Origin: a virus | DNA: 64,000 nt | Virus record (IMG/VR): IMGVR_UViG_3300033066_000693 | Location: 1-64,000 of that record | Reading direction: 5' to 3' (one strand) | Shown here: positions 38,598 to 39,673 of the stretch, piece after piece | How the letters are laid out: each line of letters begins with the position of its first letter | Numbering within the stretch: position 1 is the first letter of the stretch | Notes under the pieces: model-generated | Databases searched by the model: none | The model's input: only the letters and a program-made list of their open reading frames with translations | What the model was told of the DNA's origin: nothing | Made by a program: the position numbers and the translations under genes

Positions 38598-38911
38598 AAA
38601 CAATCGTTATCAATTTCTACAAAGAACGTTGCGATACGAACGTAGGCAGAGCTTCTAAATGGGGCAACCCATTTAGCCATAATCCAAATAGCCAAGCAAA
38701 GTTTATCGTGTCAAGCCGAGACGAGGCTATCGCTCTTCATAAGTTTTGGATTCTCGGTCAGCCAGACCTTTTAGCCGAGCTTGGAGAACTTAAAGGGAAA
38801 ATACTAGGATGTTATTGCCTTCCCAAGGCATGCCATGCAACGTGGCTTGCACATTTGGCGGATAATTTTGACGAATCGAAGGATTTTTCTGACTATAGTG
38901 CATTTTGGTAA
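38594..38911 (+). CDS. DUF4326-like small protein
   Basis: GNPF ... LLGKILGCYCLPKACHA pattern. Confidence 0.4.
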   Translation: MKTIVINFYKERCDTNVGRASKWGNPFSHNPNSQAKFIVSSRDEAIALHKFWILGQPDLLAELGELKGKILGCYCLPKACHATWLAHLADNFDESKDFSDYSAFW

Positions 38912-38946
38912 AGGAGTTTTTGCATGCCATATTGAAATAAGCATGC

Positions 38947-39588
38947 ATGAACAACCCAAAGTTTTATCGTCATCCTTGGACTAAAGAGAAAGTTGAAATT
39001 CTTCAAAAGAATTGGCCGTATATGGGAAGTACCGGCTTATTTAGATCAAATCTTTTAGAAGATATTAGTATTGCCCAAATAAAAGCAAAGGTCAATAAAC
39101 TAAAATTAGTGTTGGTCCCTAAAAAAGAGCGGCTATGCATACAATGTAAAATAGGAAATCAATTCCGAAGAGAAGCCGGATTGTTATGTCGTAAATGCTA
39201 TCTTGCCAAAAGAAAAGATGTTCGAAGTTCGCACCTTTATACATTTGAAGAATGGTTAAAAGAAATGGCAAGAAACTGTCGCTATAGAAGCCAAAAGTTT
39301 CATGGGATAGAATCTGACATAACTATTGATTTCTTAAAAGAACTCTGGGATAAACAGAACGGCAAATGTTTTTATTCAACCACGCCCATGCTTATTCCTC
39401 AATTCAAACGATTGAGAAATCCTTACTCTGCTTCTCTAGACAGAAAAGATTCGTCCCGGGGATATACCAAGGATAACGTTGTATGGTGTTGTTGGGGCTG
39501 TAATTGTGCAAAAAGCAACTTTACTTTACAAGATTATCTTGCTATGTGCGAAAAAATAGTTGAAAACAAGACAAATATTCTAAAATGA
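38947..39588 (+). CDS. free-standing HNH homing endonuclease (HNH_3 type)
   Basis: ASLDRKDSSRGYTKDNVVWCCWGCNCAKSNF; AT-rich. Confidence 0.65.
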   Translation: MNNPKFYRHPWTKEKVEILQKNWPYMGSTGLFRSNLLEDISIAQIKAKVNKLKLVLVPKKERLCIQCKIGNQFRREAGLLCRKCYLAKRKDVRSSHLYTFEEWLKEMARNCRYRSQKFHGIESDITIDFLKELWDKQNGKCFYSTTPMLIPQFKRLRNPYSASLDRKDSSRGYTKDNVVWCCWGCNCAKSNFTLQDYLAMCEKIVENKTNILK

Positions 39589-39589
39589 G

Positions 39590-39673
39590 TGCCATGCTGA
39601 TTTCTTGGCAGAGCTAGCCGATAACTTCGCTAATAGCACTAGCGAAACTCCTTTGGAGGTATATTGGCAATGA
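39590..39673 (+). pseudogene. orphan 3' fragment duplicating the DUF4326 gene C-terminus (CHADFLAELADNF...)
   Basis: peptide similar to the 38594 ORF C-terminus with synonymous recoding; stop overlaps the NADAR ATG (ATGA). Confidence 0.4.

Follow-up and report, generated by a model that had tools for sequence, protein, structure and literature searches.

The window analysed here is a stretch of 64,000 nucleotides (nt) of viral DNA, positions 1 to 64,000 of the IMG/VR record IMGVR_UViG_3300033066_000693. Between a DUF4326 gene and a NADAR gene it carries a free-standing gene for a predicted HNH-type (beta-beta-alpha-metal) endonuclease, followed by a second copy of the end of the DUF4326 gene, all on the + strand. 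The intact DUF4326 gene (38594..38911, 105 amino acids, aa) ends with a TAA at 38909-38911, and its start overlaps, as ATGA, the stop of an upstream open reading frame (ORF) of the helix-turn-helix (HTH) type. After a spacer of 35 nt (38912..38946) comes the endonuclease gene (38947..39588, 213 aa, stop TGA at 39586-39588), then the second gene end (39590..39673), whose stop TGA (39671-39673) overlaps the ATG (39670-39672) of the downstream neighbour, the NADAR gene (39670..40167, 165 aa). A preliminary description of this DNA had named both flanking genes, and the Pfam check places them well above the gathering thresholds. The DUF4326 ORF matches PF14216 with 63.6 bits (E=2.7e-17, profile positions 7-81 of 82, cut-off 25) and also phrog_464; the NADAR ORF matches PF08719 with 134.3 bits (E=6.4e-39, cut-off 35.1) and TIGR02464 (E=7.5e-38). 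The window comes from a group of very large (jumbo) phages, in which related contigs reach 506 kb. The DUF4326 protein is 62-70% identical to those of the syntenic jumbo-phage contigs L001-L007, and the NADAR protein 62-72% identical to those of L001-L007, L086, L101 and L103.

The two gene ends will be referred to as tail A and tail B. Tail A (38831..38911, CHATWLAHLADNFDESKDFSDYSAFW and stop), the upstream copy, is by sequence and alignment the functional C-terminus of the DUF4326 protein; tail B (39590..39673, CHADFLAELADNFANSTSETPLEVYWQ and stop) is the displaced one. They comprise 26-27 codons each and both end in [FY]W. The formal alignment that the preliminary description had called for confirms their similarity: 10 of 13 residues are identical in the proximal part, and the BLOSUM62 local score of 66 was reached by none of 20000 shuffles. 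The coordinates and translations given there are all correct, except for the first Cys codon of tail A, whose first base is 38831 and not 38830. When the window was scanned in six frames with the 13-mer, tail B scored 55 and the next-best site 32. Each tail begins with TGCCATGC, a sequence that the 64 kb contain nowhere but at these two positions, 38831 and 39590. The Pfam DUF4326 profile is extended by either tail: the N-terminal 79 aa alone give 49.5 bits, against 63.6 with tail A and 66.7 with tail B, a gain of 14 and 17 bits respectively. We take tail B to be a genuine DUF4326 C-terminus, and a remnant rather than a gene. It lies in the frame of the DUF4326 ORF, from which it is separated by an insert of 759 nt, or 253 codons (38831-39589), and it has no start codon, being preceded in frame by a TAG (39557) and a TAA (39581).

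At the DNA level the two tails are far apart. Only 24 of 39 bases are identical in the proximal part and about 13 of 39 are common to the distal halves. Different synonymous codons are used for 6 of the 10 conserved residues, and all five codon pairs listed at the outset are found as described. Each distal half has its own counterparts. The tail-A ending [DE]FSDYSAFW is invariant in eight related loci, and the motif is present in L001-L007, L086 and L104-L108. The distal motif of tail B, SE(T)PLEVYW, forms the true C-termini of full-length DUF4326 proteins (P0019 of L103 and P0029 of L101); the window ends in SETPLEVYW and these proteins in SEPLEVYW. Since most synonymous sites differ and the distal motif of tail B is found in real DUF4326 proteins, the tails appear to have evolved separately under protein-level selection before they were joined. 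They are diverged homologues with saturated synonymous sites and not a recent local copy. The left edge of the duplication falls exactly at the centre of an 8-base-pair palindrome, GGCATGCC (38827..38834), with GGCA on one side and TGCC on the other. This palindrome occurs once in the window, and we infer that it is a candidate break or junction point.

The other end of the DUF4326 gene is also variable. In L092-L094, contigs that are otherwise at least 99.9% identical to the window, positions 38314-38598 (285 nt) are replaced by 48 nt. The segment contains the low-GC HTH ORF of 90 aa (38325-38597), and the indel alters the start of the DUF4326 protein (MKTIV... versus MIGSTRTIV...). This polymorphism points to a second small mobile insert that rewrote this end of the gene.

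The middle ORF had been described as an AT-rich HNH gene, and both points held. Its GC content is 35.1% (30.5% at third codon positions, GC3), against 46.7% for the window. In the protein, the nuclease core (SLDRKDSSRGYTKDNVVWCCWGCNCAK) is C-terminal and is preceded by a CxxC...CxxC ribbon; the N-terminal domain is helical and shows faint Myb/SANT-like matches. It matches PHROGs 3322 (endonuclease, 1.2e-22), 1035 (endonuclease VII, 6.8e-20) and 3118 (HNH endonuclease, 8.4e-12). With the family profile, the PDB search returned PacI (E=0.0034), DraIII (0.029) and about 20 Cas9 HNH domains (0.04-0.09). The AlphaFold (AF2) model has a pLDDT of 81 and shows strands at E161-166 and E178-182, then a helix at H183-187; its best Foldseek matches are nearly all HNH domains, with weak E-values. 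The family alignment gives a core consensus S-L-D-R-x-D-x3-G-Y-x3-N-x8-C-N-x-x-K, in which S163, D165, R166, Y173, N177, N186 and K189 are invariant or nearly so. PHROGs, the PDB profile search and the predicted fold thus identify the 213-aa ORF as an HNH-type nuclease, and the gene behaves among genomes in the manner of a homing endonuclease gene. In public data, gene callers give a version of 188 aa (P0001) that begins at an internal Met. The homologues keep the full N-terminus (MNNxKxYRxPWTKEKV), which places the real start at 38947. We found no DNA similarity to deposited phages, and among 50,697 deposited phage genomes no full-length homologue of the endonuclease, only partial matches to the nuclease domain (at most 39% identity). 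A +1 frameshift at AAA-UGA-G that would join the endonuclease to tail B was considered and dropped, there being no slippery site and no plausible function.

Of the seven contexts in which the endonuclease or a full-length homologue (43-63% identity) occurs, six place the gene directly at the 3' end of DUF4326. On its far side lie NADAR in the window and in L086-88, whose synteny is that of the window, an unknown 106-aa ORF in L089/90, a DUF5662 gene in L091 and a PD-(D/E)XK nuclease gene in L097. In L100 (3596-4370, 43% identity) the endonuclease gene is convergent to DUF4326, with its last 21 codons lying antisense to the DUF4326 tail as far as the Cys-His codons. The far-side gene is thus of four kinds, and one of the six contexts is inverted; the sole exception to the linkage is L098/99. 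Within the clade, the endonuclease is present in the window and L086-88 and absent from L001-L007 and L104-L108. Between L002, without it, and L086, with it, the difference is a clean indel of 670 nt, bounded exactly by the DUF4326 stop and the NADAR ATG. The layout on the left side of the cassette does not vary among copies (stop, spacer of 21-36 nt, AUG), whereas the endonuclease differs in every genome in its final 8-15 codons, as does the sequence beyond them. More distant homologues share the nuclease domain only; they are scattered over unrelated phages and do not lie beside DUF4326. Taken together, this distribution, read from the genomes, is as expected of a homing endonuclease gene with its target in the 3' region of DUF4326. 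Five independent samples carry the phage at an identity of at least 99.9%, with the whole region from DUF4326 through endonuclease and tail B to NADAR identical to the base, and no endonuclease-free variant was recovered among them. The insertion is therefore fixed in the sampled population.

The spacer opens with an AGGAG (38912-38916) directly after the DUF4326 stop and contains a GCATGC...GCATGC hairpin, the 3' arm of which includes the AUG of the endonuclease gene. It is homologous to the spacer of L086, of equal length and identical at 25 of 35 positions. The predicted stability of the hairpin is -14.8 kcal/mol in the window (z -1.8), -18.5 in L086 (z -3.7) and -15.9 in L091 (z -4.5). In these three copies the start codon lies inside the stem, and the stem sequences all differ. 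Hairpins that occlude the start are an established translational control of I-TevI-III and segB of T4 and of mobE of phage Aeh1 (PMC2988022), and their recurrence over the AUG in three diverged copies matches this control. Translation of the endonuclease is probably throttled in the same way, judging from the predicted folding. The window hairpin (38922-38946) is made of two GCATGC palindromes, the first of which forms GCATGCCAT. This sequence recurs at the Cys-His codons of DUF4326 (38828-38836), a repeat that may be due to chance or be tied to the recognition site of the enzyme.

We consider it probable that one-sided (illegitimate) break repair brought in a free-standing homing endonuclease that targets the DUF4326 3' end, and that one of two gene ends was displaced in the process. 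An endonuclease-free DUF4326 allele would have been cut at the conserved Cys-His codons or close to them. On the left of the break, the end would then have recombined by homology with a donor DUF4326 gene, copying the donor gene end, the spacer and the endonuclease gene, while the right end would have been joined without homology, between 39589 and 39590, by one-sided, illegitimate double-strand-break repair. The outcome would be a 759-nt insert (38831-39589) that supplies the working tail A and pushes the resident tail B downstream, dead and without a start. DUF4326 would stay functional after the insertion. Tail B would still abut NADAR and bear its ribosome-binding site, so that NADAR would use its own GGAGG for translation. 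Either the lineage of the window or a previous host of the cassette may have undergone the founding event. For intron homing in T4, one-sided events with illegitimate junctions are documented by experiment (Parker et al. 1999, cited in PMC2988022). Two short echoes at other copies may be remnants of further independent insertions. In L097 (about 780-811 versus 120-160) the endonuclease ends in IKEFHGN and DUF4326 in IKEFHPD, each followed by the stop, with 14 of 15 nt shared; in L089 (about 4640-4680) the pair SIFDE and SIFD, again up to the stop, is weak and doubtful (19/24 match).

Several observations weigh against this reading. On the side of the enzyme, the ORF matches no Pfam model at E<=0.01 and no NCBIfam model at E<=0.1, and the homologues P0002-P0004 are likewise without a meaningful Pfam match. 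The E-values of its matches by structure and in the PDB are poor (about 1e-2 to 1e-3), and its core has Asp-Arg in place of the canonical Asp-His of HNH, with an Arg for the first His, as is also the case in the aligned segment of PacI. The target site is read from the junction alone, and cleavage and homing are predicted activities. As to the pre-insertion state, no near-identical endonuclease-free relative was found in the metagenome collection, where the best NADAR identity is ~70%. Downstream of the endonuclease in L086, L089 and L091 there is no convincing tail-B-like remnant, and none of the other loci with the endonuclease has a long one. On the side of the tails, every relative closest to the window in NADAR and in the N-terminus of DUF4326 has a tail-A-type ending, and tail-B-type endings are met in more distant phages (L101, L103). 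Tail B is moreover a hybrid that in the proximal half is most similar to the near clade (11 of 13 residues shared with L007) and in the distal half resembles L103. Finally, in the mitochondrial hybrid genes of Allomyces and Glomus it is the downstream copy that matches close relatives, while in the window the upstream copy is clade-typical.

The last points concern polarity, the question which of the two tails is foreign, for which no available relative is closer than about 70%. Tail A matches the nearest relatives at 19-20 of 26 aa, about the similarity of the rest of the protein, and tail B at 10-12 of 26, its best match being 15 of 26 with the distant L101/L103; tail A thus looks clade-typical and tail B the odd one. 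Within the mechanism set out above we nevertheless lean towards tail A being imported and tail B native. Tail B lies flush with NADAR through the ATGA overlap and contains the GGAGG Shine-Dalgarno of NADAR (39655..39659, 10 nt before the ATG). Over its distal 54 nt, tail A has 83% identity to the endonuclease-bearing L086, with a run of 20/20 (GCGGATAATTTTGACGAATC), while the identity to L086 is 67% for the N-terminal part of DUF4326, 65% for the HNH gene and 65-68% for the surrounding genes; endonuclease-free relatives reach 56-76% over the same 54 nt. The conserved side of the cassette is the left one. GC3 is 0.385 in tail A, nearer the endonuclease, and 0.444 in tail B, nearer NADAR, over 26 codons only. 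The opposite polarity, in which tail A is the phage's own end and the endonuclease and tail B came as a unit from an earlier host by ordinary homologous homing, with the right crossover at or inside NADAR, would explain why the closest relatives (NADAR about 70%, DUF4326 N-terminus) are all of the tail-A type, and why the distal motif of tail B is that of the L101/L103 lineage, whose NADAR is about 62% identical. But it seems unlikely: the tail B-NADAR overlap with its GGAGG resembles a native operon junction, the proximal half of tail B (CHADFLAELADNF) is nearer L007 than L103, the 5' end of the window NADAR has no L103-like mosaic, L086 provides the best match to distal tail A and to the spacer, and the same founding mechanism would still be required elsewhere. 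No mosaic breakpoint that would reveal the donor was seen in the 5' end of NADAR or along DUF4326, the profile being noisy and the sequences short. The earlier claim that the cassette brought its own copy of the target end stands for the architecture, which is that of the mitochondrial hybrids (PMC3630166), and less so for the polarity, the nearest relatives being of the tail-A type. It is rather improbable that the cassette is built as endonuclease between two tails, with tail B as a right-hand homology arm repairing breaks inside any DUF4326 gene. Such an element would be independent of the downstream genes, and this would explain the spread of the family to DUF4326 in several unrelated contexts.

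Three other explanations do away with one-sided homing. The tight linkage to DUF4326 in six contexts and the conservation of the nuclease-core residues throughout the family would also suit an endonuclease that is domesticated and not selfish, a functional partner of DUF4326 in a two-gene module, the duplicated tail being a recombination scar. We hold this for very unlikely, given the presence and absence of the gene at one site among close relatives, its two orientations relative to DUF4326 (L100), its AT-rich composition and the scattered, unrelated phage contexts of the distant nuclease-domain homologues; most DUF4326 genes, moreover, lack such a neighbour, a tblastn search with the window endonuclease having given no match in the 70 viral DUF4326 loci fetched. 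A different proposal makes of the 759-nt segment a self-splicing intron or other removable element, and of tail B a real exon, so that DUF4326 would end in ...EVYWQ and be coupled to NADAR. HNH genes are frequent residents of phage group I introns, and tail B keeps the reading frame of the upstream ORF, but a frame match is expected by chance in one case out of three. No Rfam family, group I and II introns included, was found at E<=1 in 36000-41000 (Rfam 15, both strands). The first part of such an intron would be an entire gene end, clade-typical and evidently under selection, with its stop codon, and the endonuclease-bearing L086, L089 and L091 have no downstream exon at all; we judge it highly improbable. 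Least credible is that the 3' end of DUF4326 was duplicated in tandem within this genome, the copies diverging on the spot and the endonuclease coming in separately. Direct repeats around an insert can indeed come from replication slippage. The different codons of most conserved residues and the dissimilar distal halves speak against it, as do the full-length proteins of other phages in which each distal motif occurs naturally; neutral decay would not recreate the SE-PLEVYW motif. Besides, the copies in the population are identical and give no sign of rapid local divergence.

The locus has parallels in known systems. Mobile endonuclease ORFs that make hybrid genes are described in mitochondria, in atp6 of Allomyces macrogynus (Paquin, Laforest & Lang 1994), in atp6, atp9, cox2 and nad3 of Glomus sp., in atp9 of Rhizopus and in cox2 of Mortierella (PMC3630166). 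The order is the same as in the window, with gene body, in-frame C-terminus, endonuclease ORF and a displaced second C-terminus downstream, and the C-termini are likewise similar as proteins and diverged as DNA (63.5% for Glomus atp6, 24/39 or about 62% here). Differences nevertheless appear: the window belongs to a phage and not to an organelle, the enzyme is of the HNH and not of the LAGLIDADG or GIY-YIG type, and it is a separate ORF after a stop and a 35-nt spacer instead of being fused in phase. With the free-standing endonucleases of T4-like phages (segA-G, mobA-E; intronless homing) the window gene shares an intergenic position, presence or absence among relatives, a target in a conserved neighbour gene, co-converted flanks, a hairpin over the start and non-homologous junctions where homology is one-sided. 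It differs from them in its protein family and target gene, in that its activity is predicted, and in that the family keeps its target linkage across several unrelated downstream contexts. PacI (PDB 3ldy), an atypical HNH nuclease, is the best sequence-profile match, a weak one over 30 residues. It has the same core D-R-x-D-x3-G-Y-x3-N...C-x-x-C-N-x-x-K with Arg for the usual first His, but is a restriction enzyme of 142 aa, to which the window protein adds the N-terminal helical domain and the Cys4 ribbon. In Aeromonas phage Aeh1, mobE, a hairpin-regulated HNH gene that splits nrdA ('genes in pieces'), also sits in or at a conserved phage gene (PMC2988022). However, it gives two functional halves and no duplication, whereas in the window the gene is whole and the second copy of its end non-functional.

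The locus falls into a known category, the free-standing HNH homing endonuclease, with a gene-end duplication of the mitochondrial style, of which this member is new and uncharacterised. It would provide a clean phage case of a footprint documented so far mainly in fungal mitochondria, in which the replacement gene end keeps the host gene intact while an endonuclease gene enters a coding gene. It also defines an uncharacterised endonuclease family that has no Pfam model and whose target gene can be read from genomics alone. The DUF4326 genes of jumbo phages could offer a tractable system for one-sided homing and for jumps of endonucleases between unrelated genomes. For annotation, the 84-nt remnant is not to be called a gene, and the endonuclease is to be started at 38947 and not at the internal Met.

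The original arrangement had been proposed to be a translationally coupled DUF4326-NADAR pair. Adjacency is the rule in the jumbo-phage clade, where the order metallophosphatase, DUF4326, NADAR and 157-aa ORF is conserved in L001-L007 and L104-L108, but the ATGA overlap is found in no sampled relative: from the DUF4326 stop to the NADAR ATG there are 3 nt in L001/L002/L104-106 and 32 nt in L103. Coupling of the two genes is plausible from the sequence. In L061/L062 (4001-4792, 263 aa) DUF4326 appears, as judged by eye, to be fused to a C-terminal domain with NADAR-like motifs. DUF4326-NADAR fusions have been reported, together with the proposal that both domains act on ADP-ribose derivatives (PMC9503650), with which the linkage observed here agrees. 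Elsewhere among the relatives the gap between the two genes is filled by unrelated inserts of 41 to 1637 nt, which makes the junction an insertion hot spot. The gaps of L003-L007 contain no tail-B-like remnant. In L004/L005/L107 (about 2411-3991) the insert is a 526-aa ORF of unknown function, and in L006 (3524-4000) and L007/L108 (3717-4000) a conserved open frame of ~95 codons without an obvious start. DUF4326 also forms the N-terminal domain of proteins of 840-1100 aa in L034, L058, L074 and L075, the C-terminal part of which resembles, by eye, family-A DNA polymerases.

Two further features of the surroundings deserve mention. Just upstream of the metallophosphatase gene, and overlapping its longest ORF, lies an ORF for a LAGLIDADG-type endonuclease (36934-37686, 250 aa, GC 38%) with a C-terminal resolvase-like HTH; a homologue with 64.5% identity occupies the same place in L005. 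Downstream, the neighbourhood at 40685-44600 is conserved in L086/L092/L101 and comprises Clp_N-domain proteins, a nucleoside 2-deoxyribosyltransferase-like gene and a class II tRNA-synthetase-like ORF, as well as an HD-domain protein and a PRPP synthetase. This region looks like an island of nucleotide and NAD/ADP-ribose metabolism.

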